64,000 nt of DNA from Escherichia phage vB_EfeM_pEP20, in sequence record OQ743992; one strand, 5' to 3'. Of this stretch, positions 46,035 to 54,927 are shown one piece after another. The first letter of the stretch is position 1. Each line of letters starts with the position of its first letter. Under the pieces are notes generated by a model. It had not been told where the DNA came from. It did no database searches and saw only the letters and a list, made by a program, of their open reading frames with translations. The translations under genes and the position numbers were made by a program.

Positions 46035-47651
46035 TCAACGTCTAAGCCCCTCATATGGGTTTCCTCTCACTAAGTCTGTGTGAGCACCCATTGATGGTGG
46101 CTTGAATAATTTAACTTCATTAAGACTGTTGAAAGCATCACTGGTAGCATCCACTTGGTCATCTTTAGTTTTACCATCACCACAAAAACCTTCAAGTTCT
46201 TGGAAATAAGCTTCGTTCCAACTACCTCTCAAGACTTTTACAAGTCCAGCTTCAGAAGCAGCAGAAAACCCCGCAAAGCGGGTAACTTTATCTTTATTTG
46301 TTGGTTTAGCTCTTGCGCGATAACCTTTCTCGGCAAGTTTCCTGATGAGGGATGTTGCATAGGATTTACCAGCAGCGCCTGGGTCTTGAGGGATAAAAAT
46401 ACCAGTTCGCTTACCGTCACTTTCAGCAGTCAAATTAATTTGTGTTTCGACTCCAGAGGGTCTATCTCTAAATCTTACTACATCAATGATATAATAGCAA
46501 CCGTCTTTTTTAGATTTACCCATCTTAACACCCGCTGTCCAGTCTGGGTTAGGGTTAATTTCAGATGGTAAAGTCGCTGCTAAGTCCCATGCTCTGACAT
46601 CAAATACGTCTTCTGGGAGTGAATCAACAATCTCACACCACTGTCTTTGCCAATAGTTTGAACCTTCTGCACGAGCCTTCCAGTTACCGAAACGAAGTCT
46701 TGCAACGTTTACAGGTGTGTTGTTTTCCAACTTACCACGATATTTAGGTTCTAAGAAGTCAAGAATTGGGTTATCATCAATCGTACCAGAGATGAAGGTG
46801 TATGTTTGAGGAATCTCAAGAGGGAACATTTCAAGAATCTTGTCTCTCTCCCAATCAGAAACCATCACACCATCATTCATAACATACCAACGAATACGAC
46901 CGCACTTCTCAGGGTCTGGGTAACCTTCTTCATCTAAGAAAGGCTCTACCCAATCATAAATGAAGTGGTCTCTATCTGGGTTCATAGAAATCTTCATGTA
47001 TGAGTCACTTTCAGCACCAGAACGTAGACGAGTCTGTAGGTATGAAATCTGTGAAGCAGAGAAGTGTGTACCTTCGTCAAAGTAGATAGCTGAGTATTCA
47101 ATACCCTGATGACCTTCAGCGTGCTTTTCAAGTTCTAGGTAGGTAAACTTGATAGTTGCCCCAGAAGGGAATGTGATAGTCATCTTCTGCTCATGAGGAA
47201 CCCCACCAAACTTACCAAATAGTTTCTTTGCAGCAGGCCATAAACCACCTTGTAACTGTGTTGTATTTTGACGGAAATATACAGCATTATAGTTAGGGTC
47301 TTCAATAAACCTTAAAGAGTCCATTAATAATGCAGCAGTTTTACCAGCACCAGCAGCACCACCATAGAGAACCAAGTCAGCATTAGTATTTAAAAAGACC
47401 TCTTGAGAACCCGGCTGAGGGGCTACATAGTTCTTATCAGTCATCAATTTGAAGATAAGTCTAACTTGGTCTGGTGTGTATCTTAATAAAGTCAGAATTT
47501 GAGTTGGAAGGAATTTAGAGGGGTCTTTACCGTATGATTTGATAATTTCTTTTACTTCATCAGGAAGCCCCAACTCTCCAGCTAGGACTTTCCTAACATC
47601 TTCCACTCGCTTCTGCTTAATAGCATTTAAGTCCATTAAGCACCTCCGCAA
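46035..47651 (-). CDS. terminase large subunit
   Basis: 538 aa; Walker A LYGGAAGAGKT, Walker B-like AIYFDEGTH, C-terminal nuclease-like acidic motifs. Confidence 0.85.
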   Translation of the reverse strand: MRRCLMDLNAIKQKRVEDVRKVLAGELGLPDEVKEIIKSYGKDPSKFLPTQILTLLRYTPDQVRLIFKLMTDKNYVAPQPGSQEVFLNTNADLVLYGGAAGAGKTAALLMDSLRFIEDPNYNAVYFRQNTTQLQGGLWPAAKKLFGKFGGVPHEQKMTITFPSGATIKFTYLELEKHAEGHQGIEYSAIYFDEGTHFSASQISYLQTRLRSGAESDSYMKISMNPDRDHFIYDWVEPFLDEEGYPDPEKCGRIRWYVMNDGVMVSDWERDKILEMFPLEIPQTYTFISGTIDDNPILDFLEPKYRGKLENNTPVNVARLRFGNWKARAEGSNYWQRQWCEIVDSLPEDVFDVRAWDLAATLPSEINPNPDWTAGVKMGKSKKDGCYYIIDVVRFRDRPSGVETQINLTAESDGKRTGIFIPQDPGAAGKSYATSLIRKLAEKGYRARAKPTNKDKVTRFAGFSAASEAGLVKVLRGSWNEAYFQELEGFCGDGKTKDDQVDATSDAFNSLNEVKLFKPPSMGAHTDLVRGNPYEGLRR

Positions 47652-47657
47652 ATAGAA

Positions 47658-47858
47658 TTATTCAGAGTCTGTAGCAGTCTCTTCTTTCTTAACTTCGAAC
47701 TTTGCATCAACAGCGTCAAGAAGTGCATCCATAGAGGCTTCTTTGATATCAATACCTGTTGCTACAGATAATCTGTCTGCAATTGCCATGATAGTGTTCT
47801 GCATAAATTCTAGCTTTTTGTTAGCTTCATAAAGTTCTTTATAAACGGTCTCGCTCAT
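47658..47858 (-). CDS. hypothetical small protein upstream of terminase (66 aa)
   Basis: RBS GGAGAAAA then ATG; too small to call terminase small subunit. Confidence 0.45.
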   Translation of the reverse strand: MSETVYKELYEANKKLEFMQNTIMAIADRLSVATGIDIKEASMDALLDAVDAKFEVKKEETATDSE

Positions 47859-47894
47859 TATGTTTTCTCCAAATAATTAACCATGTTTCTCCTT

Positions 47895-47918
47895 AAAAAA
47901 GACGGTACAGAGACCGTC
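47895..47918 (-). terminator. rho-independent terminator (minus strand) between tRNA array and structural block
   Basis: Hairpin GACGGT-ACAGAG-ACCGTC, followed on the minus strand by TTTTTT. Confidence 0.5.
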
Positions 47919-48080
47919 AAGGAGAAACCACAATGTACGTCAGAGACATACTGTATAAGTCTTCTTATAAAGTATAACTCTGTAAAAAAGCCCTGTCTAA
48001 AAATACTCTTCGGTAGCGAAAGGAAGAATACTTATAGCAGGGCATTATTATTATTTTAATTGAGAGAGAGTAAAATAACT

Positions 48081-48156
48081 TGGAGAATCCGAAGGGACTC
48101 GAACCCTTATAAACCTGTTTTGCAGACAGGCACATAGCCATTTCTGTCACGGATTC
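48081..48156 (-). tRNA. tRNA-Cys (anticodon GCA)
   Basis: Hand-folded: perfect 7-bp acceptor, anticodon loop CTGCAAA, T-arm AAGGG-TTCGAGT-CCCTT, discriminator U, CCA encoded. Confidence 0.75.
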
Positions 48157-48160
48157 AAAT

Positions 48161-48253
48161 TGGAGGAAGATACCAGACTTGAACTGATACACCGATTTCT
48201 CAGCTACTGGCAGTTTAGCAAACTGCTCCCTTACCTTTTAGGGTTAATCTTCC
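48161..48253 (-). tRNA. tRNA-Ser (anticodon GCT), class II
   Basis: Perfect acceptor GGAAGAT/ATCTTCC, anticodon loop TTGCTAA, about 20-nt variable arm, T-loop TTCAAGT. Confidence 0.75.
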
Positions 48254-48254
48254 A

Positions 48255-48989
48255 TTATTTCTGTAATGCGTTCTTCATTTCTGGTGTTGCAATAGTGTCA
48301 ATTACACCAGTTTTACAAGCATCATCAAACCAGTCTGGTAAGATACCTGCTAAGAACCCATTGATATTCGTTTTAAGGTACTCTGCAATAAGGGCAGCTT
48401 CTTCTTCAATCATCTGCACAACTTCATCTGCATAAGCTGTAATCTTTGAGATACCTTCATTAATCTTGCTAACAGCTTGGTTAGCTAAATCAGAAATAGT
48501 ATCAAGACCTTTATCAATAGCATCTTGTAAGTCACTTAATACATCGTTAACACCGTCTAGTGCACTGTTAATTGTGTCAATAGCTTTTTGACCATATTCT
48601 GTAGCAACACCCATAATACCACTAAATGGTGTACAACCAACTTGCTCTCCTGCTGCACCCATAACATTGGAATATCCTTTTGCTACCTGCATACGTGATG
48701 AAAACTCATCAATGGACTTTTGACCGTAATCTGTCAGTGTCTTAGTGGTTGATGTAGTGCTTGTCAGACTCGTTGTAAAGCTGTTAAGCAGAACTGTTGT
48801 AAGTCCAGCGGCAACAAGTTTATCCTTTATTGTAGGGTCTGTTACAGAGCTAATAGAGCTTACAAGTGATGTAGAGGCAGCTACGGTTCCACCGAGAACT
48901 GCTGCACCAGTAATAAGGGGATTAGAAAACCCTCTACCGGTTTTTAAGAGACCAAAAATCTCCTTACCTTGTTCTGTCATCTCTTTCAT
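48255..48989 (-). CDS. hypothetical protein with hydrophobic segment and coiled-coil region, embedded in the tRNA array
   Basis: Start taken at ATG 48989 (MKEMTEQ...) behind AAAGGTG; the longer track start would overlap a tRNA-like gene. Confidence 0.45.
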   Translation of the reverse strand: MKEMTEQGKEIFGLLKTGRGFSNPLITGAAVLGGTVAASTSLVSSISSVTDPTIKDKLVAAGLTTVLLNSFTTSLTSTTSTTKTLTDYGQKSIDEFSSRMQVAKGYSNVMGAAGEQVGCTPFSGIMGVATEYGQKAIDTINSALDGVNDVLSDLQDAIDKGLDTISDLANQAVSKINEGISKITAYADEVVQMIEEEAALIAEYLKTNINGFLAGILPDWFDDACKTGVIDTIATPEMKNALQK

Positions 48990-49005
48990 TAAGCACCTTT
49001 GAAAT

Positions 49006-49080
49006 TGGTAGTTCAGTGGGATTTGAACCCTCTTCTCATGTTTTTCAGACACGCGCTTTAACCATATAAGCTACTTGGAC
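49006..49080 (-). tRNA. tRNA-like gene with Phe-type anticodon arm (GAA); acceptor stem does not pair, possible pseudo-tRNA
   Basis: Good D-arm (GCTT/AAGC) and anticodon arm (loop CTGAAAA), T-loop TTCAAAT, but 5' GTCCAAG cannot pair with 3' TGAACTA. Confidence 0.35.
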
Positions 49081-49087
49081 TATAAAT

Positions 49088-49163
49088 TGGGGTGACCTAC
49101 GGGATTTGAACCCGTATAGACCATGTTCACAGCATGGGTCATTACCATTTATGATAAGGCCAC
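49088..49163 (-). tRNA. tRNA-His (anticodon GTG)
   Basis: Acceptor GTGGCCT/AGGTCAC, D-stem TCAT/ATGA, anticodon loop CTGTGAA, T-arm ACGGG-TTCAAAT-CCCGT. Confidence 0.7.
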
Positions 49164-49194
49164 ATTTAAGGACTCTCGTAAGAATCCTTAGAAG

Positions 49195-49270
49195 TGGCAG
49201 CGGCATAAGGATTTGAACCTTAATAAGACAGCTTCAGAGACTGCTGCATTGCCAGTTATGCTATACCGCT
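49195..49270 (-). tRNA. tRNA-Gln (anticodon CTG)
   Basis: Acceptor AGCGGTA/TGCCGCT, D-stem GCAT/ATGC, anticodon loop CTCTGAA. Confidence 0.6.
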
Positions 49271-49275
49271 AAATT

Positions 49276-49354
49276 TGGTACTCCATATCGGATTCGAACC
49301 GATACATAACACAGATTTTAAGTCTGGCCTCTCTGCCAATTGGAGTAATGGAGC
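49276..49354 (-). tRNA. tRNA with Leu-type anticodon TAA but short variable arm (atypical)
   Basis: Acceptor GCTCCAT/ATGGAGT, perfect T-arm ATCGG-TTCGAAT-CCGAT, Leu-like D-loop AATTGGCAGAG, anticodon loop CTTAAAA, discriminator A, variable region only about 7 nt. Confidence 0.5.
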
Positions 49355-49356
49355 AT

Positions 49357-49432
49357 TGGCGGGGGATGCTGGAATTGAACCAGCTTCTTCGATTTCAAAG
49401 ACCGAGGTTTTAACCTTGTAAACTAATCCCCT
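49357..49432 (-). tRNA. tRNA-Gln (anticodon TTG)
   Basis: D-stem GTTT/AAAC, anticodon arm TCGGT-CTTTGAA-ATCGA, T-arm GCTGG-TTCAATT-CCAGC; first acceptor pair mismatched. Confidence 0.6.
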
Positions 49433-49440
49433 TTAAATCT

Positions 49441-49998
49441 TTACTTTCTTAGTGGATGAATAAAGAATGCCAACATAACTCTTTCCCTTGAGAATGCTCT
49501 TTCTTCTGGGACAACACTTTTTAGTTTCCATCCAATATAAATTCTCCAGTAAAACTGTTTACCAAAGACTTTAATTGATGGGATAAAAGCGAATAATCCC
49601 CAAGCATTACTGTTCCACATTAGGAGATAACCAGTCTGATTATCTTCAGGGTCAGAACTTACGTTGATATTACCTTTCCACTTAGTAACATCTTTTACAT
49701 CTCTTCCTAATACATGGTAAGAGAAGTTATAAGCTTTGTTTCTCCAGAGCCATCCAACTCTCTGCATATAAACACCAAGCTTACCAATCTTTCTAATCTT
49801 AGCCCATCTCTCAACGTGGCCTTTGTCACCATCAATCGGGTTGTCATAGGTCTCCATCCATCTGAATCCAAAAGGTAGATGCCCTTTCTTCTCGCTGTAG
49901 AATGGAACCACAAATGGTGCTAAGATTACTGCTAAGATTGCTGCAAATGGTTCTAGCAAAGCTAGGAAAATCCATGAAGCATATTTTAAATATCTCAT
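49441..49998 (-). CDS. hypothetical membrane protein (185 aa) inside tRNA array
   Basis: N-terminal hydrophobic helices (IFLALLEPFAAILAVILAPFVVPF). Confidence 0.45.
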   Translation of the reverse strand: MRYLKYASWIFLALLEPFAAILAVILAPFVVPFYSEKKGHLPFGFRWMETYDNPIDGDKGHVERWAKIRKIGKLGVYMQRVGWLWRNKAYNFSYHVLGRDVKDVTKWKGNINVSSDPEDNQTGYLLMWNSNAWGLFAFIPSIKVFGKQFYWRIYIGWKLKSVVPEERAFSRERVMLAFFIHPLRK

Positions 49999-50237
49999 CG
50001 TCTAATCCTTGTAAGGAGATAAGTGTTATTATTTGTTTCTGAGTTTTCTGGTAACATTGTCTCAAAATTGACACTTTTAAGTTGTCTTCCACCAAAGTAA
50101 TGACCAATAAATTTTTCTACTCTTATTGGGTCGCATTCCCAGCCGACTTTCAAGAAAATGTGGGTATCTATAGTGGGAACCCTTACAAACTCAACACTAT
50201 TGGAATTTTCATGTTCAACGACTATTAATGTTTGCAT
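49995..50237 (-). CDS. hypothetical protein (80 aa) inside tRNA array
   Basis: Track ORF with overlap to downstream gene. Confidence 0.4.
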   Translation of the reverse strand: MQTLIVVEHENSNSVEFVRVPTIDTHIFLKVGWECDPIRVEKFIGHYFGGRQLKSVNFETMLPENSETNNNTYLLTRIRR

Positions 50238-50245
50238 AAATCCCT

Positions 50246-50321
50246 CTTACTTAATTGGCGCAGGATAAGGGATTCGAACCCCTATTAACAGCTTCGTAGA
50301 CTGTTGCTCTATCCATTTGAA
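50246..50321 (-). tRNA. tRNA-Arg (anticodon ACG)
   Basis: Perfect acceptor GCAGGAT/ATCCTGC, anticodon loop CTACGAA, T-loop TTCGAAT. Confidence 0.7.
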
Positions 50322-50326
50322 CTAAT

Positions 50327-50404
50327 CCTGCAAAATTGGTGTTCCAAGACGGATTCGAACCGTCACTAGTACAAGGTTTGAGCTTGCATCCTCTGCCAAT
50401 TGGG
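50327..50404 (-). tRNA. tRNA with Leu-type anticodon CAA but short variable arm (atypical)
   Basis: Acceptor GTTCCAG/TTGGAAC, Leu-like D-loop AATTGGCAGAG, anticodon arm GCAAG-CTCAAAC-CTTGT, perfect T-arm GACGG-TTCGAAT-CCGTC, discriminator A, 6-nt variable region. Confidence 0.5.
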
Positions 50405-50405
50405 A

Positions 50406-50480
50406 TACTGGAACATGGTACTCACTAAAGGACTTGAACCTTTTTCTTCATCTTGTAAGGGTGATGTTTTACCATATAAA
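50406..50480 (-). tRNA. tRNA-Val (anticodon TAC)
   Basis: Acceptor ACTCGCT/AGTGAGT, D-stem GTTT/AAAC, anticodon loop CTTACAA, T-arm AAAGG-TTCAAGT-CCTTT. Confidence 0.65.
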
Positions 50481-50577
50481 CTAAGCGAGTGTGAAAAGAG
50501 GTCTGAAGTTGTGCCGCTAACTCAACTCCGTGGAATTTGTTACGGTCTTCAGTTGACTCAAAGCGGTCTTTCACTTG

Positions 50578-50653
50578 ACCTCTAAATTGGTGCTCCCACA
50601 AGGATTCGAACCCTGATAAGTTGCTTACAAGGCAACCGTAATAGCCAATTATA
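50578..50653 (-). tRNA. tRNA-Thr (anticodon TGT)
   Basis: Acceptor GCTCCTA/TGGGAGC, anticodon arm GTTGC-CTTGTAA-GCAAC, T-loop TTCGAAT. Confidence 0.65.
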
Positions 50654-50660
50654 CGATAGG

Positions 50661-50735
50661 AGCATTAATTTGGAGCATCCAGAGGGAATCGAACCCTCAA
50701 CCTCAGTTTGGAAGACTGTAATTTTCCCGTTTAAA
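50661..50735 (-). tRNA. tRNA-Gly (anticodon TCC)
   Basis: Perfect acceptor GCATCCA/TGGATGC, anticodon loop CTTCCAA, T-arm GAGGG-TTCGATT-CCCTC. Confidence 0.7.
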
Positions 50736-50741
50736 CTATGG

Positions 50742-50817
50742 ATGCACTAATTGGTGGAGTCACTGAGAATTGAACTCAGTTCCCAAGTTTGCAAAACTCG
50801 AATTTTAACCATATAAA
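50742..50817 (-). tRNA. tRNA-Ala (anticodon TGC)
   Basis: Acceptor GGGGTCA/TGACTCC with the G3-U70 pair, anticodon loop TTTGCAA, T-arm CTGAG-TTCAATT-CTCAG. Confidence 0.75.
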
Positions 50818-50824
50818 CTATGAC

Positions 50825-50900
50825 CCCCATTGTTTGGTACAGGTGGATGGAATTGAACCCATCGTCTTACTGATTAAGAGTCAGCCGCATAACCATTTTG
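50825..50900 (-). tRNA. tRNA-Lys (anticodon CTT)
   Basis: Acceptor GCAGGTG/CACCTGT, anticodon arm GCTGA-CTCTTAA-TCAGT, T-stem GATGG/CCATC. Confidence 0.6.
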
Positions 50901-50907
50901 CTACACC

Positions 50908-50984
50908 TGCATTAATTTGGTACACCTAGAGAGATTCGAACTCACACTGAGCAGATTCTAAGTCTGCTGCCTCTACCAGTTGGG
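50908..50984 (-). tRNA. tRNA with Leu-type anticodon TAG but short variable arm (atypical)
   Basis: Acceptor GCACCTA/TAGGTGT, Leu-like D-loop CAACTGGTAGAG, perfect anticodon arm GCAGA-CTTAGAA-TCTGC, T-loop TTCGAAT, discriminator A, 5-nt variable region. Confidence 0.5.
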
Positions 50985-51249
50985 CTATAGGTGCATTAAA
51001 TCTTTTTAGAGAACTTCTAAGAACCTAAGCAACAAGGTTCCACAACAAGCTGTAATAACCTTAGAAGCCCTCTAAAAAGACCTAAATAGGTCTTTGCATA
51101 GTCTTGTTTAATCCGGTGACTAGAACCTTTGGAGAGCTTGATATTATCTCTTCTCCGTGACACCTACTAGGTGCTTTATCAGTGTGTACGACAATACACG
51201 AGGGATAAACCGAAAATGCGAGCAAGCATGGACGGTATAAATCTTATTA

Positions 51250-51339
51250 GGCGGTAAGTAAAGGAGTCGAACCCTCACCGTATCTCTACAGTGGCAACTG
51301 TTTTCAAGACAGTTTGGCTACCATTAGCCGCTACCTACC
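51250..51339 (-). tRNA. tRNA-Ser (anticodon TGA), class II
   Basis: Acceptor GGTAGGT/ACTTACC, perfect anticodon arm ACTGT-CTTGAAA-ACAGT, 20-nt variable arm, T-loop TTCGACT; CCA not fully encoded. Confidence 0.65.
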
Positions 51340-51352
51340 CCTAATAAGACTT

Positions 51353-51435
51353 TGGCATGGGACGGAGGAGTTGAACCACTTTGAAACGGTTTTGGAGGCC
51401 GTTGCTCATGCCTTAGAGTCTTAACATCGTCCCAT
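51353..51435 (-). tRNA. tRNA-like gene with Trp-type anticodon loop (CCA) and expanded 5' D region (atypical)
   Basis: Perfect 7-bp acceptor ATGGGAC/GTCCCAT with discriminator G and CCA; loop CTCCAAA on stem ACGG/CCGT; about 8 extra nt before the D-arm and a weak T-stem. Confidence 0.4.
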
Positions 51436-51587
51436 ACTTTAATTCGAAGCTTACCGTATTTTCGCAACACTGTAAAGCCCCTTCTCAGATTATTTACATG
51501 TTCTGGAAAACATGAGATACAGACCACCTCCTTACACGGAGACCCGATAAGGTCGTCTAAGCAATCTGCTAACTATTTGGCACACCC

Positions 51588-51664
51588 TACAGGATTCGAA
51601 CCTGTAACTAACGATTTAGAAGACCGTTGCTCTATCCAATTGAACTAAGGGTGCATTAATCTTT
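51588..51664 (-). tRNA. tRNA-Arg (anticodon TCT)
   Basis: Acceptor GCACCCT/AGGGTGT, D-stem GTTC/GAGC, anticodon arm ACGGT-CTTCTAA-ATCGT, T-arm ACAGG-TTCGAAT-CCTGT. Confidence 0.7.
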
Positions 51665-51991
51665 AAAGACTCTCTTAGAAAGCCCTTAAAGATGCCCACC
51701 TTATTAATCATACCGTGGGCTAGTACGCCAAATTCTTTGATGAGGGATTGGAAGACCTCACTGGTGTTTAGCCTATCAAGCTACTGCCAGAAAAACATTG
51801 TCGTTTGCATTTATTTTAAATTTGCAAAATAGACGCTACGCAACGAAAACTATTCAGAATATGTACAACAAATTTCCCCACATTGTGTTACGTCTAACGC
51901 TCATGTATTGGTGTTTGAATTATACATATTATGAATCATTTTTAGTTACTATAAAGCGGTCACATCTCAATGTCAACAACTTTATTGAAAT

Positions 51992-52067
51992 TGGTGCTGG
52001 TAGGTGGAATCGAACCACCGATATTCCCTTATCAGGGGAGTGTTATAACCTTCTTAACTATACCAGC
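51992..52067 (-). tRNA. tRNA-Ile (anticodon GAT)
   Basis: Perfect acceptor GCTGGTA/TACCAGC, D-stem GTTA/TAAC, anticodon loop CTGATAA, T-arm GGTGG-TTCGATT-CCACC. Confidence 0.7.
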
Positions 52068-52068
52068 T

Positions 52069-52145
52069 TGGAGGTTCAGATGGGAATCGAACCCACATTC
52101 ATAGGGCTTATGAAACCCCTGCATTACCTTATCTGCGACTGAACC
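52069..52145 (-). tRNA. tRNA-Met (anticodon CAT)
   Basis: Acceptor GGTTCAG/CTGAACC, anticodon arm with three consecutive G-C pairs and loop TTCATAA, T-arm GTGGG-TTCGATT-CCCAT. Confidence 0.65.
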
Positions 52146-52149
52146 ATAT

Positions 52150-52225
52150 TGGTAGAAGTAGAGGGATTCGAACCCATCGCCTGTCAGATTAAAAGTCTGC
52201 CGCATCACCATTCTGCTACACTTCC
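52150..52225 (-). tRNA. tRNA-Lys (anticodon TTT)
   Basis: Acceptor GGAAGTG/TACTTCT (two G-U pairs), anticodon loop CTTTTAA, T-loop TTCGAAT with a weak stem. Confidence 0.55.
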
Positions 52226-52229
52226 ATTA

Positions 52230-52373
52230 AATTATCTTTGTAGATAAGCTACCCAGACTTGCTTAAGGTCTGTAGCGATGTGCCTTTTTGGGTTTAAATC
52301 TAGAATTTACCCTTTCACCCTTTGTGGTCGCATACTCACAGGTAAGCTTAATAACTTATCTACAAAGATAATT
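52230..52373. repeat. 19-bp perfect inverted repeat (AATTATCTTTGTAGATAAG) enclosing about 106 bp
   Basis: Arms at 52230-52248 and 52355-52373 are exact reverse complements; the enclosed sequence holds hairpin CCCAGAC-TTGCTTAAG-GTCTG. Confidence 0.6.
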
Positions 52374-52374
52374 A

Positions 52375-52506
52375 CCAGACCGTTGTTTATCATCTTAAGT
52401 GCTACCATTACACCAACTCGACATCTGCCGAGTGAAGGAATCGAACCTTCGCCTTTTCTTTACCGGAGAAATAGATTGTTTAAAGTTTGCTGTAAACGGT
52501 CTTCTG
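52375..52506 (-). ncRNA. candidate Y-RNA-like ncRNA U1 with embedded tRNA-like module (YrlA-like architecture)
   Basis: Minus-sense 5' CAGAAGACCGUUUACAGCAAAC ... ACGGUCUGG 3' with termini pairing (AGACCGU/ACGGUCU); interior has hairpin UUUCU-CCGGUAA-AGAAA, T-arm GAAGG-UUCGAUU-CCUUC, closed acceptor-like hairpin ACUCGGC-AGAU-GUCGAGU, D-arm GUG-UAAUGGUAG-CAC. Confidence 0.5.
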
Positions 52507-52519
52507 TAAATTTGTTGAG

Positions 52520-52604
52520 CCAGACCAAGTTTTAAATTTTTCAAAATTAAATTGGCTTGAAATTTTAAGTAACTTGCTGAATTTGGTCTTCTGCTCCTTT
52601 AAAG
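52520..52604 (-). ncRNA. candidate Y-RNA-like ncRNA U2
   Basis: Minus-sense 5' CAGAAGACCAAAUUCAGCAAG ... UUGGUCUGG 3'; terminal stem AGACCAA/UUGGUCU covaries with U1/U3. Confidence 0.45.
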
Positions 52605-52690
52605 AATACTCGTAAGAACTCTTTAAGGGAGGGGCTAAATAGCCCTCTCAAACATCATTTTGAAATACTTATTATAATTTGGCGGTTACG

Positions 52691-52768
52691 AAGGGATTCG
52701 AACCCTCATCATCTCCCGTGACAGGGGAGTATTTTAACCAGATTAAACTACATAACCTTCATTTGGTG
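52691..52768 (-). tRNA. tRNA-Asp (anticodon GTC)
   Basis: Acceptor GGTTATG/CGTAACC, perfect anticodon arm CTCCC-CTGTCAC-GGGAG, T-loop TTCGAAT. Confidence 0.7.
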
Positions 52769-52774
52769 TGCCGT

Positions 52775-52862
52775 GTAGGAGTCGAACCTACCGAGTCTTA
52801 ATGACAAGGGATTTACAGTCCCCACCGCTACCATCTACGGGATAACGACACATTTAAATTTG
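52775..52862 (-). tRNA. tRNA-Tyr (anticodon GTA), class II
   Basis: Acceptor GTGTCGT/ACGGCAC, anticodon loop CTGTAAA, long variable arm, T-arm GTAGG-TTCGACT-CCTAC. Confidence 0.65.
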
Positions 52863-52871
52863 GCGGTTAGT

Positions 52872-52948
52872 CAGGGATTCGAACCCTGTGCCATTCGCTT
52901 AACAGGCGACCGCACATACCTTATGTGCTTCCTAACCTTAATACATTG
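52872..52948 (-). tRNA. tRNA-Asn (anticodon GTT)
   Basis: D-stem GCAC/GTGC, anticodon loop CTGTTAA, T-arm CAGGG-TTCGAAT-CCCTG; last acceptor pair mismatched. Confidence 0.65.
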
Positions 52949-52959
52949 CCAGACCGTGT

Positions 52960-53020
52960 TTTTTCTTTTATCCACAAAAAAGTAGTTTGTTGCTGAATAC
53001 GGTCTTCTGCAAAATTGGAG
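52960..53020 (-). ncRNA. candidate Y-RNA-like ncRNA U3
   Basis: Minus-sense 5' CAGAAGACCGUAUUCAGCAAC ... CACGGUCUGG 3'; internal hairpin CUUUUUU-GUGGAU-AAAAGA. Confidence 0.45.
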
Positions 53021-53026
53021 GCGGGT

Positions 53027-53103
53027 GCAGGAGTCGAACCTGCCGATACCATGCTAATGAGACATGTGAGACGCCCTTTCTCTATACCCGCAATTCTTAA
53101 TGA
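53027..53103 (-). tRNA. tRNA with anticodon CAT (second Met, or Ile2 if lysidine-modified)
   Basis: Anticodon arm CATGT-CTCATTA-GCATG, T-arm GCAGG-TTCGACT-CCTGC; first acceptor pair mismatched. Confidence 0.6.
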
Positions 53104-53114
53104 CCAGACCAAAT

Positions 53115-53187
53115 CTCTTCTTTGTCCGATTTCGTGTCAGATGAATAAGCTTAAGTTTGCTGTAATTGGTCTTCTGTCAAAACTGGC
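53115..53187 (-). ncRNA. candidate Y-RNA-like ncRNA U4
   Basis: Minus-sense 5' CAGAAGACCAAUUACAGCAAAC ... UUGGUCUGG 3'; same conserved 5' core and covarying terminal stem as U2. Confidence 0.45.
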
Positions 53188-53194
53188 GTTCCAG

Positions 53195-53272
53195 AAGGGA
53201 TTTGAACCCTCAAATATCCACTTTGAAAGAGTGGTGACTTTACCATTTTGTCTACTGGAACATTAATTTGGT
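53195..53272 (-). tRNA. tRNA-Glu (anticodon TTC)
   Basis: Perfect acceptor GTTCCAG/CTGGAAC, perfect anticodon arm CCACT-CTTTCAA-AGTGG, T-loop TTCAAAT. Confidence 0.7.
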
Positions 53273-53279
53273 CTCTGTT

Positions 53280-53356
53280 GGAGGACTTGAACCTCCGGCC
53301 TTACCGCCCCAAACGGAACGCTCTACCAAGCTGAGCTAAACAGAGATAAACTTTTC
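53280..53356 (-). tRNA. tRNA-Pro (anticodon TGG)
   Basis: Perfect acceptor CTCTGTT/AACAGAG, D-stem GCTC/GAGC, anticodon loop TTTGGGG, T-arm GGAGG-TTCAAGT-CCTCC. Confidence 0.7.
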
Positions 53357-53475
53357 AAACTCTATGTAACCACTTTAACATTATTTTTTAGTGGTTGTCA
53401 AGAACTTTTTTTAAAATATTTTTCAGTATCTTAGAAAAGCTCTCATTTCGTTTCTATGTAGAACATATTAAAGGG

Positions 53476-53501
53476 TATTAAACACATTGTCAATACCCTT
53501 T
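53476..53501 (-). terminator. hairpin downstream of the Ro60-like gene (terminator or promoter-overlapping operator)
   Basis: Minus-sense GGGTATT-GACAATGTGTTT-AATACCC followed by TTTAATAT; the same stretch contains TTGACA, so it may be a promoter for the tRNA array instead. Confidence 0.35.
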
Positions 53502-53511
53502 TTAAAACTTT

Positions 53512-54927
53512 TTACCAGATGTAACGGTCAATCATTACTGCTTTGAGCATTACGCTGATTGGGTCAAACTTCTCACCACCGAGCAGAGCTTTTAAAGTGG
53601 CTGGAGAGAACCCTGATACCATTGCTACACCGTTATCCTTAACAGACACTTCGCAAGTACCATTACGGTTTGCTAAGTACCAGAATACCAGTTGTGGCAT
53701 TTCGTATCCAGCTTTTTTGTACTTACTACGAATTGCTTCAAAGTTTGTACGACCATTTGCACCATCAACCTGATTGAACTCCATATCAGAGAAGATGATA
53801 AGCTTACTTGGCATATCTTTCTGAGTCAAGTTGTTTCTCTTACCTGTCTCAAGAATACGGTCAAAAGCTGCTTGTAAGTTAGTTGAGCCATATTCAACAT
53901 GACGCATCACCTGACGATGACGGTTTTTCAAATCACCACTCAGTTCGATGAAATGAGGGTTTGTTGAATAAACCATTAACTCATTCTTAAAGCAACCCGT
54001 ATTGCGTTCTGCTACATACAAGGCAAGGGATACACCAATATCAAGGGCAGTGATTGAACCAAGATTCACCCAAGACATTGAGCTTGAAACATCAGTCATA
54101 CACAGGATGTTCTCACCTTCTGCCATCCAGTTTGGTAGTGCTTTCCACTGCTCATTAGCCACATCTGCATTACCATACTTAATAGATTTAATCACATCGT
54201 ATGGGTAAACAGCACCAGCGTTAATCTTAACCTCACCCTTTGAGAGTGACTCGATGTAAGCTTTGTAACGTTCCCCATCTTTACGGTTAAAGAGTTTTTG
54301 GTAACGTGCAGTAGCGAGTGAAGGAATCTTGCTGTAGTCAATCTTACCAAACTCATTAGCAGAGATTTTTTGCTCAACCGTATCAGACAGTGCAGATAAC
54401 AGTGTGCGATACTCCTTCTCACTTAAGTTTGCAAACTTACAGAAACGTTTTACAAACTGTTTGTGGCGTGGTTTTACTCGTGGTAACCACTTAGCCGCTA
54501 AACCTGCTGTTGCAGGGTCTAGTAATGCTGCTTCTAAATGTTTGAAGGCATCTGTCTCAAAACGAGTGCCTACGAAGATTTTGAAGTCATCAAAACGACC
54601 AAGTTCTGCAATCTTATCCATAATGCGAAGAACCTGTGTAGGTTCTAAAACTTTATCTTCAATCGCTTGAAGTAAAACAGTTCGGAAAGCTTTACGCTCA
54701 CCCATACCTTCTCGTACATCTCGCATATGCAGTAAAATACGAACTGCAACATCAACATCCTCACGCAAAGCTTTGTAGAACAGGTCTGGTAAGATTTCTA
54801 CATTGCTACGGCTTGAGCCAGCGGCTTTGTAAAAGTCTACCAGAGCAGACATTGATGAAGTATGGTTTACAGCACCATTTTCAGTTCGACCTGCATGAAG
54901 GTGCGCATGTTTAAATAACTCGCTCAT
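53512..54927 (-). CDS. Ro60-like protein (TROVE-like helical N-terminal region + von Willebrand A domain with MIDAS motif)
   Basis: 471 aa; helical N-terminal 260 aa, then DVSSSM MIDAS motif and a C-terminal region that aligns from memory with the Ro60 vWA domain (DVSASM...LGSI, GSTN vs GGTD, IFSDME vs VFTDNE). Confidence 0.5.
   Translation of the reverse strand: MSELFKHAHLHAGRTENGAVNHTSSMSALVDFYKAAGSSRSNVEILPDLFYKALREDVDVAVRILLHMRDVREGMGERKAFRTVLLQAIEDKVLEPTQVLRIMDKIAELGRFDDFKIFVGTRFETDAFKHLEAALLDPATAGLAAKWLPRVKPRHKQFVKRFCKFANLSEKEYRTLLSALSDTVEQKISANEFGKIDYSKIPSLATARYQKLFNRKDGERYKAYIESLSKGEVKINAGAVYPYDVIKSIKYGNADVANEQWKALPNWMAEGENILCMTDVSSSMSWVNLGSITALDIGVSLALYVAERNTGCFKNELMVYSTNPHFIELSGDLKNRHRQVMRHVEYGSTNLQAAFDRILETGKRNNLTQKDMPSKLIIFSDMEFNQVDGANGRTNFEAIRSKYKKAGYEMPQLVFWYLANRNGTCEVSVKDNGVAMVSGFSPATLKALLGGEKFDPISVMLKAVMIDRYIW

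Follow-up and report, generated by a model that had tools for sequence, protein, structure and literature searches.

Three tRNA genes with leucine anticodons (UAA, CAA and UAG), located in a dense tRNA array of Escherichia phage vB_EfeM_pEP20, were found to lack the long variable arm. The stretch analysed, hereafter the window, comprises 64,000 nucleotides (nt) of sequence record OQ743992. Architecturally, the three genes fit the type I kind of tRNA-Leu known from mitochondria, Streptomyces and mycobacterial tRNA clusters, and they belong to a widespread type I tRNA-Leu family of phages and Actinomycetota. They probably encode functional, leucine-accepting type I tRNA-Leu used in phage translation; expression, leucylation by the host's leucyl-tRNA synthetase (LeuRS) and use in translation are deduced here from sequence. 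The genes are located as follows.

49276-49354, minus strand: tRNA-Leu(UAA), type I (ARAGORN, taa, 79 nt with CCA; Rfam RF00005; sequence; script parse)
50337-50414, minus strand: tRNA-Leu(CAA), type I (ARAGORN, caa, 78 nt with CCA; Rfam RF00005; sequence; parse of an orthologue)
50918-50994, minus strand: tRNA-Leu(UAG), type I (ARAGORN, tag, 77 nt with CCA; Rfam RF00005; sequence; script parse)

An initial annotation, made from the letters alone, had placed the first gene exactly but the other two 10 nt too low (50327-50404 and 50908-50984), and it had given no strand. Its central claim, that three genes with leucine anticodons have no long variable arm, was agreed upon by ARAGORN, Rfam, the cloverleaf parse and alignment to Escherichia coli leuZ, leuX and leuW. 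Rfam family RF00005 scored 47.5, 43.6 and 57.3 bits for Leu-UAA, Leu-CAA and Leu-UAG, respectively (gathering score 29), with E-values from 5e-8 to 1e-10, and the covariance-model alignment of Leu-UAA displayed only a few inserted bases at the variable loop. Cloverleaves were read by hand and parsed with a script. The genes measure 76 nt (Leu-UAA), 75 nt (Leu-CAA) and 74 nt (Leu-UAG) before CCA, and each of them encodes CCA and the discriminator A73. The variable region is GUUAUGU in Leu-UAA (7 nt, window positions 49304-49310), ACUAGU in Leu-CAA (6 nt, 50365-50370) and UCAGU in Leu-UAG (5 nt, 50946-50950), in keeping with the 5-7 nt and 74-76 nt proposed initially. None of the three genes therefore displays what characterises class II, i.e. 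a variable region of more than 10 nt forming a stem-loop. Moreover, flanking tRNA genes begin 1-7 nt from each Leu gene on both sides (ARAGORN) and, since only 74-76 nt precede CCA, there is no space for an extra arm.

The stems and loops were as follows. Leu-UAA displayed the acceptor stem GCUCCAU/AUGGAGU with a G1.U72 pair, the D-arm CUC-CAAUUGGCAGA-GAG, the anticodon arm CCAGA-CUUAAAA-UCUGU with a C27.U43 mismatch, and the T-arm AUCGG-UUCGAAU-CCGAU. The corresponding elements of Leu-CAA were GUUCCAG/UUGGAAC, UCC-CAAUUGGCAGA-GGA, GCAAG-CUCAAAC-CUUGU and GACGG-UUCGAAU-CCGUC. For Leu-UAG they were GCACCUA/UAGGUGU, again with G1.U72, GCC-CAACUGGUAGA-GGC, GCAGA-CUUAGAA-UCUGC and GUGAG-UUCGAAU-CUCUC, the latter containing a U50.U64 mismatch. 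The G1.U72 wobble atop the acceptor stem of Leu-UAA and Leu-UAG corresponds to G1-C72 in E. coli tRNA-Leu. It was recorded in 43 out of 109 unique type I tRNA-Leu of phages, 8 out of 25 phage type II tRNA-Leu and 99 out of 779 other phage tRNAs.

The array itself provided an internal control, since its Ser and Tyr genes have retained their arms:

48081-53345, all on the minus strand: array of 26 tRNA genes (ARAGORN)
48161-48253, minus strand: tRNA-Ser, long variable arm
51250-51339, minus strand: tRNA-Ser, long variable arm
52764-52851, minus strand: tRNA-Tyr, long variable arm

These are the sole long tRNAs of the array (Ser-GCU, 93 nt; Ser-UGA, 90 nt; Tyr-GUA, 88 nt). Their folds show clear extra stem-loops and their variable regions span 15-21 nt. 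No class II tRNA-Leu was found in the array, either by ARAGORN or by a permissive Rfam scan of positions 47600-53600, as the initial annotation had already stated.

Leucine identity in E. coli has been attributed to A73, A14, the A15:U48 Levitt pair, G18G19, A20a, G18:U55, G19:C56 and U54:A58, with no crucial part played by either the anticodon or the long arm (Giege and Eriani 2023, PMC9976931). This full LeuRS identity set was present in all three phage genes. Their D-loop reads C13-A14-A15-U16-U/C17-G18-G19-Y20-A20a-G21-A22, the last base of each variable region is U, which together provide A14 and A15:U48, and the T-loop is invariably UUCGAAU, supplying the bases for G18:U55, G19:C56 and U54:A58. 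The 17-nt D-arm consists of an 11-nt loop (CAAUUGGCAGA or CAACUGGUAGA) on a stem of three base pairs (bp), in register with GAAUCGGUAGA of E. coli leuZ. Leu-type D-loops and a discriminator A had been reported in the initial annotation, and both hold in the sequence and in the parse. Alignment with host tRNA-Leu, another of its proposals, showed that the D-arm design, the discriminator and the T-loop are common to the phage genes and to E. coli leuZ (UAA), leuX (CAA) and leuW (UAG), with a gap of 8-10 nt exactly at the variable arm. Finally, the genes were compared, anticodons masked, with 1,029 unique phage tRNAs, a set composed of 13% tRNA-Leu, the collection of which had favoured type I tRNA-Leu. 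Among the 25 nearest neighbours, 22-23 were tRNA-Leu.

Class II tRNA-Leu, whether from phage T5 or from E. coli (leuZ, leuX and leuW), thus resemble the phage genes in anticodons, A73, 3-bp D-stem, 11-nt D-loop AAUUGGYAGA, A15:U48 and encoded CCA. Yet, they differ by a variable region of 13-15 nt instead of 5-7 nt, by G or A instead of C at position 13, and by the 1:72 pair, which is G.U in two of the three phage genes. Recent capture from the host was considered and rejected. A blastn search of 5,426 complete E. coli genomes gave no match for Leu-UAG, indicating that the phage genes are not recent host copies, and E. coli genes could be aligned only with the 8-10 nt gap and about 70% column identity.

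Closer likenesses were found among Actinomycetota. A type I tRNA-Leu(CAA) of Streptomyces coelicolor has been characterised; it is charged by a bacterial LeuRS and was called rare (Fan et al. 2019, PMC6614811). Like the phage genes, it combines a short variable loop with a bacterial-type LeuRS, but the phage genes are virus-encoded, comprise three isoacceptors without class II partner in the phage, and lie in a phage of Enterobacteria. A Leu-specific type I pattern, applied to one genome per species, retrieved tRNA-Leu in 125 of 126 tRNAs among the matches listed. The proportions given here for GTDB and IMG/VR are drawn from small samples of such listed matches and are no totals. Most of the listed bacterial genes were solitary chromosomal ones (CAA, UAA, CAG, UAG) in Actinomycetota, including Mycobacterium, Nocardia, Pseudonocardia, Amycolatopsis, Streptomyces and Micromonospora. 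A minority occurred in dense arrays of 9-34 tRNAs per 8 kb, on contigs assigned to Acidobacteriota, Planctomycetota, Lachnospiraceae and others. Chromosomal type I tRNA-Leu of actinomycetes have the D-arm CCCAAYUGGYAGAGG, U48, A73 and the T-loop UUCGAAU in common with the phage genes, and a gene on a contig binned as Actinomycetaceae (L135) shared 41 of the 43 positions between U8 and G49 with Leu-UAG (hand count). The D-loop sets the enterobacterial phage genes apart: it has 11 nt as in E. coli tRNA-Leu, whereas the loop is one base longer in the type I tRNA-Leu examined from Mycobacterium and Streptomyces phages and in some chromosomal ones of actinomycetes.

Two further systems deserve comparison. 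A tRNA-Leu(TAG) of a mycobacterial tRNA cluster was said, in a one-sentence remark, to have a short variable loop (Behra et al. 2019, PMC6582537). As in the phage, the armless gene lies within a dense tRNA array, which also holds an HNH endonuclease gene; unlike in the phage, the array is a bacterial genome island, and that report contains no analysis of identity elements or distribution. Animal mitochondrial tRNA-Leu are likewise of type I: their variable loop is short, and A73 and A14 are determinants (PMC9976931). They differ from the phage tRNAs in having a dedicated mitochondrial LeuRS and a relaxed, often mismatched structure, whereas the phage tRNAs, with their canonical bacterial core, would use the cytoplasmic-type enzyme of the host.

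Short-arm tRNA-Leu turned out to be frequent among viruses. By blastn, positions 8-75 of Leu-UAG matched annotated tRNA-Leu of Mycobacterium, Streptomyces, Gordonia, Cronobacter, Klebsiella, Pseudomonas and Enterococcus phages, as well as of a cyanophage and a crAss-like phage. The spans in the matched records were about equal to those in the query, indicating that the matched genes contain no long-arm insertion. ARAGORN recorded three tRNA-Leu of 74-76 nt in Mycobacterium phage Roots515, two of 76 nt in Streptomyces phage Elmer and two of 74-75 nt in Cronobacter phage CR3, the last beside long Ser and Tyr tRNAs. A pattern scan of IMG/VR, which is biased toward the short form, yielded 140 well-formed tRNA-Leu among the matches listed, 114 of which had a variable region of 4-7 nt and 26 one of 11-19 nt. 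At the loci listed, all Ser variable regions measured at least 14 nt and all Tyr variable regions at least 10 nt, so that arm loss was confined to tRNA-Leu. Less biased samples were obtained from loci picked via a non-Leu tRNA (14 short and 12 long tRNA-Leu) and from loci anchored on tRNA-Met (10 short and 25 long among the 35 unique tRNA-Leu of the matches listed). Together, these two small IMG/VR samples put the armless share of virus-encoded tRNA-Leu at roughly 30-50%. The statement of the initial annotation that phage tRNA-Leu are normally class II is thus partly right, and the rarity it implied was overstated, short-arm forms being frequent in phages and in Actinomycetota.

The viral genes also displayed the signature of maintained structure. 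In 123 unique type I tRNA-Leu from IMG/VR each stem position was canonical in 86-100% of the genes, with 4-6 pair types, the T53 pair (G53-C61) being invariant; shuffled controls reached about 40-75%, T53 apart. A73 was present in 106 and A15:U48 in 103 members of the filtered IMG/VR set (n=109). U48 occurred in 91 of 92 phage type I tRNA-Leu with 5-nt loops, compared to 150 of 426 (35%) other tRNAs. A leucine anticodon and a 4-7 nt variable loop, together with A73, the A15:U48 pair and a Leu-type D-arm, are common to 109 unique IMG/VR genes and 139 genes of bacterial genomes, and all of these features were found in the three genes of the window.

Class II tRNA-Leu is kept by phage T5 (UAG, 85 nt), N4-like phages and some jumbo phages. 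That the classical model phage T5 carries a class II gene may be one reason why so little has been said about the short form. Fresh arm deletions of host leuZ had also been suspected from phage matches ending at position 46, but the genes of Klebsiella phage Pylas, Aeromonas phage ZPAH34 and Salmonella phage As2 proved to be ordinary class II members of 83-85 nt. In full-text literature searches no description of armless tRNA-Leu in phages was found, the only related reports being the Streptomyces study and the mycobacterial remark cited above.

The phage belongs to Felixounavirus, a genus of the subfamily Ounavirinae whose members are the Felix O1-like phages. The region is 95-97% identical to that of many such phages of Escherichia, Salmonella and Shigella, and the surrounding 5.4 kb display 80-99% identity among relatives. 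Of 263 phage records matching Leu-UAA, 215 reached an identity of at least 99%, and for Leu-CAA 247 of 291 records reached at least 95%. At an identity of at least 90%, Leu-UAG occurred in only about 92 phage records, compared to about 250 for Leu-UAA and Leu-CAA. Leu-UAG, carried by roughly one third of Felix-like phages, is thus an accessory gene of the array, and this uneven gene presence indicates that the array is mosaic within the genus. Erwinia phage Roscha1, more distant but from the same subfamily, carries three type I tRNA-Leu of 77-78 nt, which share the D-arm of the Felix genes and have wholly different, yet compensated, acceptor and anticodon stems. In the close relative NC_041979 (RefSeq) the gene order is the same, the tRNA-Leu genes are annotated at 79, 78 and 77 nt, and all tRNAs of the stretch examined fall inside the array (locus tags gt001-gt026). 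The genes themselves are thus already publicly annotated; their armless architecture is not.

As for function, the Leu genes would be transcribed with the rest of the array and undergo the same processing as tRNAs of the host, CCA being encoded as in E. coli tRNA genes. Host LeuRS would then charge them by reading A73 and the core formed by D-loop and T-loop with the variable region, rather than the anticodon or a long arm. No phage aminoacyl-tRNA synthetase, LeuRS included, was detected among the ten window open reading frames (ORFs) of at least 450 amino acids, which also points to charging by the host enzyme. In decoding, the UAA anticodon would read UUA and UUG, CAA would read UUG, and UAG would read CUN. 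Leucine codons of the window (39% GC) are UUA (27%), CUU (27%), CUG (15%), UUG (13%), CUA (12%) and CUC (6%), and E. coli decodes leucine mainly at CUG. The UUA, UUG and CUN codons read by the three tRNAs dominate the AT-rich phage genes and are minor in the host. Arm loss would be tolerated only in tRNA-Leu, and Ser and Tyr tRNAs of the array would keep their arms because bacterial seryl- and tyrosyl-tRNA synthetases (SerRS and TyrRS) need them. This dependence is well known for bacterial TyrRS. It has likewise been reviewed for SerRS (PMC9976931).

Whether E. coli LeuRS would accept such substrates is the point on which published data diverge. A 2002 study by Larkin, cited via the review of Giege and Eriani, is said to be the key paper on a minimal E. 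coli tRNA-Leu. Arm-less variants of E. coli tRNA-Leu are charged (PMC9976931). Several observations, however, weigh against functional, leucine-accepting tRNAs. E. coli LeuRS failed to charge the S. coelicolor type I tRNA-Leu(CAA) and was described as handling type II only (PMC6614811). In crystal structures its C-terminal domain (K809, R811) contacts the backbone of the variable arm (PMC12360207), and loss of the arm may therefore lower affinity. In the genes themselves, the C27.U43 mismatch of Leu-UAA and the U50.U64 mismatch of Leu-UAG count on the same side, as do single-sequence minimum free energy folds, which were not clean cloverleaves for two of the three genes, though this is common for tRNA genes. 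Furthermore, Leu-UAG displays A37 in place of the G37 (m1G site) of E. coli CUN-reading tRNA-Leu, and C38 of Leu-CAA breaks the A36A37A38 motif, which is needed for i6A37 and, via i6A37, for 2'-O-methylation of position 34 (PMC9976931). The phage tRNAs may consequently be modified unlike their host counterparts. Lastly, A15 was partly fixed by the search pattern in IMG/VR, so that in that part of the sample only U48 and A73 are independent. As regards the heterologous failure, it could be through their 11-nt D-loop that the Felix genes suit the enterobacterial enzyme.

Why the arm was lost is a separate matter. The simplest reading is relaxed constraint combined with the tendency of phages to shed dispensable bases. 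Adaptive loss, compatible with functional type I tRNA-Leu, would hide phage tRNA-Leu from host factors with a specificity for class II tRNAs, e.g. toxins or defence enzymes directed at tRNA, and leucine decoding would thereby survive inactivation of host tRNA-Leu. This is a doubtful proposal, albeit one with precedents: MenT3 requires the long loop of tRNA-Ser, AbiEii seems to favour class II tRNAs, and phage tRNAs are known to escape tRNA-targeting defences (anticodon nucleases) by sequence changes (PMC10264068). The armless form also recurs in phages of unrelated hosts. However, we found no E. coli or Salmonella defence described as targeting tRNA-Leu via its arm, T5, N4-like and many other phages keep class II tRNA-Leu, and relaxed constraint together with deletion bias accounts equally well for a pattern restricted to Leu. 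The solitary chromosomal genes of many Actinomycetota, for which defence escape is no obvious motive, argue against a purely defensive origin. A broader proposal, equally unlikely in our view, would make armless tRNA-Leu a mobile and mostly virus-borne lineage, passed among phages with unrelated hosts as well as into Actinomycetota, the spread of which may be driven by an advantage of lacking the arm such as escape from class II-recognising host factors. If true, its corollary would be the existence of natural type I substrates for E. coli LeuRS, in conflict with the published type II-only statement.

It is still less probable that the three genes are no leucine acceptors in vivo and represent uncharged decoys, regulatory tRNA-like RNAs or decaying pseudogenes. 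Failure of E. coli LeuRS on a heterologous type I tRNA-Leu would fit such roles, as would the one-stem mismatches in Leu-UAA and Leu-UAG and the restriction of Leu-UAG to about one third of Felix-like genomes. Yet, those mismatches are single ones and occur in these two genes only, core bases are intact, and all three genes combine the full LeuRS identity set with encoded CCA. In addition, the genes are near-invariant over more than 200 genomes whose surroundings display 80-99% identity, compensatory changes were observed across the subfamily and the wider family, and the three anticodons fit the leucine codons most used by the phage.

Charging with another amino acid, the phage thereby recoding leucine codons, is highly improbable. 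Of the features of the genes, only their unusual architecture points that way. None of them displays G3:U70, which is the alanine determinant, and they have neither the long arm nor the G73 expected for SerRS. UAA, CAA and UAG would be rejected by most other synthetases, for which the anticodon is a recognition element. A73, A15:U48 and the Leu-type D-loop form a leucine set, and the nearest neighbours of the genes are tRNA-Leu. An identity switch is possible in principle, given that LeuRS, SerRS and alanyl-tRNA synthetase (AlaRS) ignore the anticodon (PMC11028032).

There is a negligible probability that hand folding or the gene caller produced a spurious short arm, with a long arm or another gene boundary overlooked: the initial folds were indeed drawn by hand, with two genes misplaced by 10 nt, but two independent programs gave the same boundaries, RefSeq annotates the same lengths, the spacing described above leaves no room, and no tRNA model of at least 84 nt was obtained at the loci. 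A missed long arm or a wrong isotype, the two outcomes named beforehand as contradicting the initial annotation, are ruled out by ARAGORN, Rfam and gene spacing, and automated tRNA prediction returned neither.

Several other features of the array and its surroundings were recorded. Besides the 26 genes, the permissive Rfam scan of 47600-53600 revealed no further tRNA except a single sub-threshold 65-nt match at 52426-52490 on the minus strand (RF00005, 24.7 bits, E = 0.086). Placed in a 450-nt gap that separates tRNA-Lys from tRNA-Asp, this match could represent a decayed tRNA gene or some tRNA-like element. The following ORFs lie within or next to the array:

48255-49052, minus strand: ORF, DUF7217 (Pfam, E = 1e-89), embedded between tRNA genes of the array, conserved
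49441-49998, minus strand: ORF, DUF7338 (Pfam, E = 4e-62), embedded between tRNA genes of the array, conserved
53512-54927, minus strand: ORF of 471 amino acids, DUF2828 and DUF7788 (Pfam), adjoining the array just past tRNA-Pro (53269-53345)

The counterpart of the DUF2828/DUF7788 ORF in NC_041979 is annotated as 'RNA-binding protein', and a PDB sequence search with the protein gave no match. Its placement next to 26 tRNA genes may be meaningful. In another phage, Klebsiella phage Pylas, a 76-nt 'tRNA-Pyl' is annotated in the N4-like tRNA cluster (locus L128, 353-428). It has an amber-reading CUA anticodon and may act as a suppressor.

In textbooks and in recent structural papers, the long variable arm counts as defining for non-mitochondrial tRNA-Leu. 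The Felix O1-like coliphages, a well-known group, carry solely armless tRNA-Leu in which every E. coli leucine determinant is intact. In the literature searched, it appears not to have been described that type I tRNA-Leu is common in phages and that a whole coliphage lineage uses it exclusively. The same apparently applies to the conflict between this exclusive use and the published view of E. coli LeuRS as handling type II only. For tRNA annotation, the consequence is that short tRNA-Leu of viruses should not be discarded by length- or class-based filters. Three natural substrates and one well-studied enzyme also provide a simple test system for the part played by the arm in charging, editing and decoding, and they raise the question of whether phages gain from dropping it.

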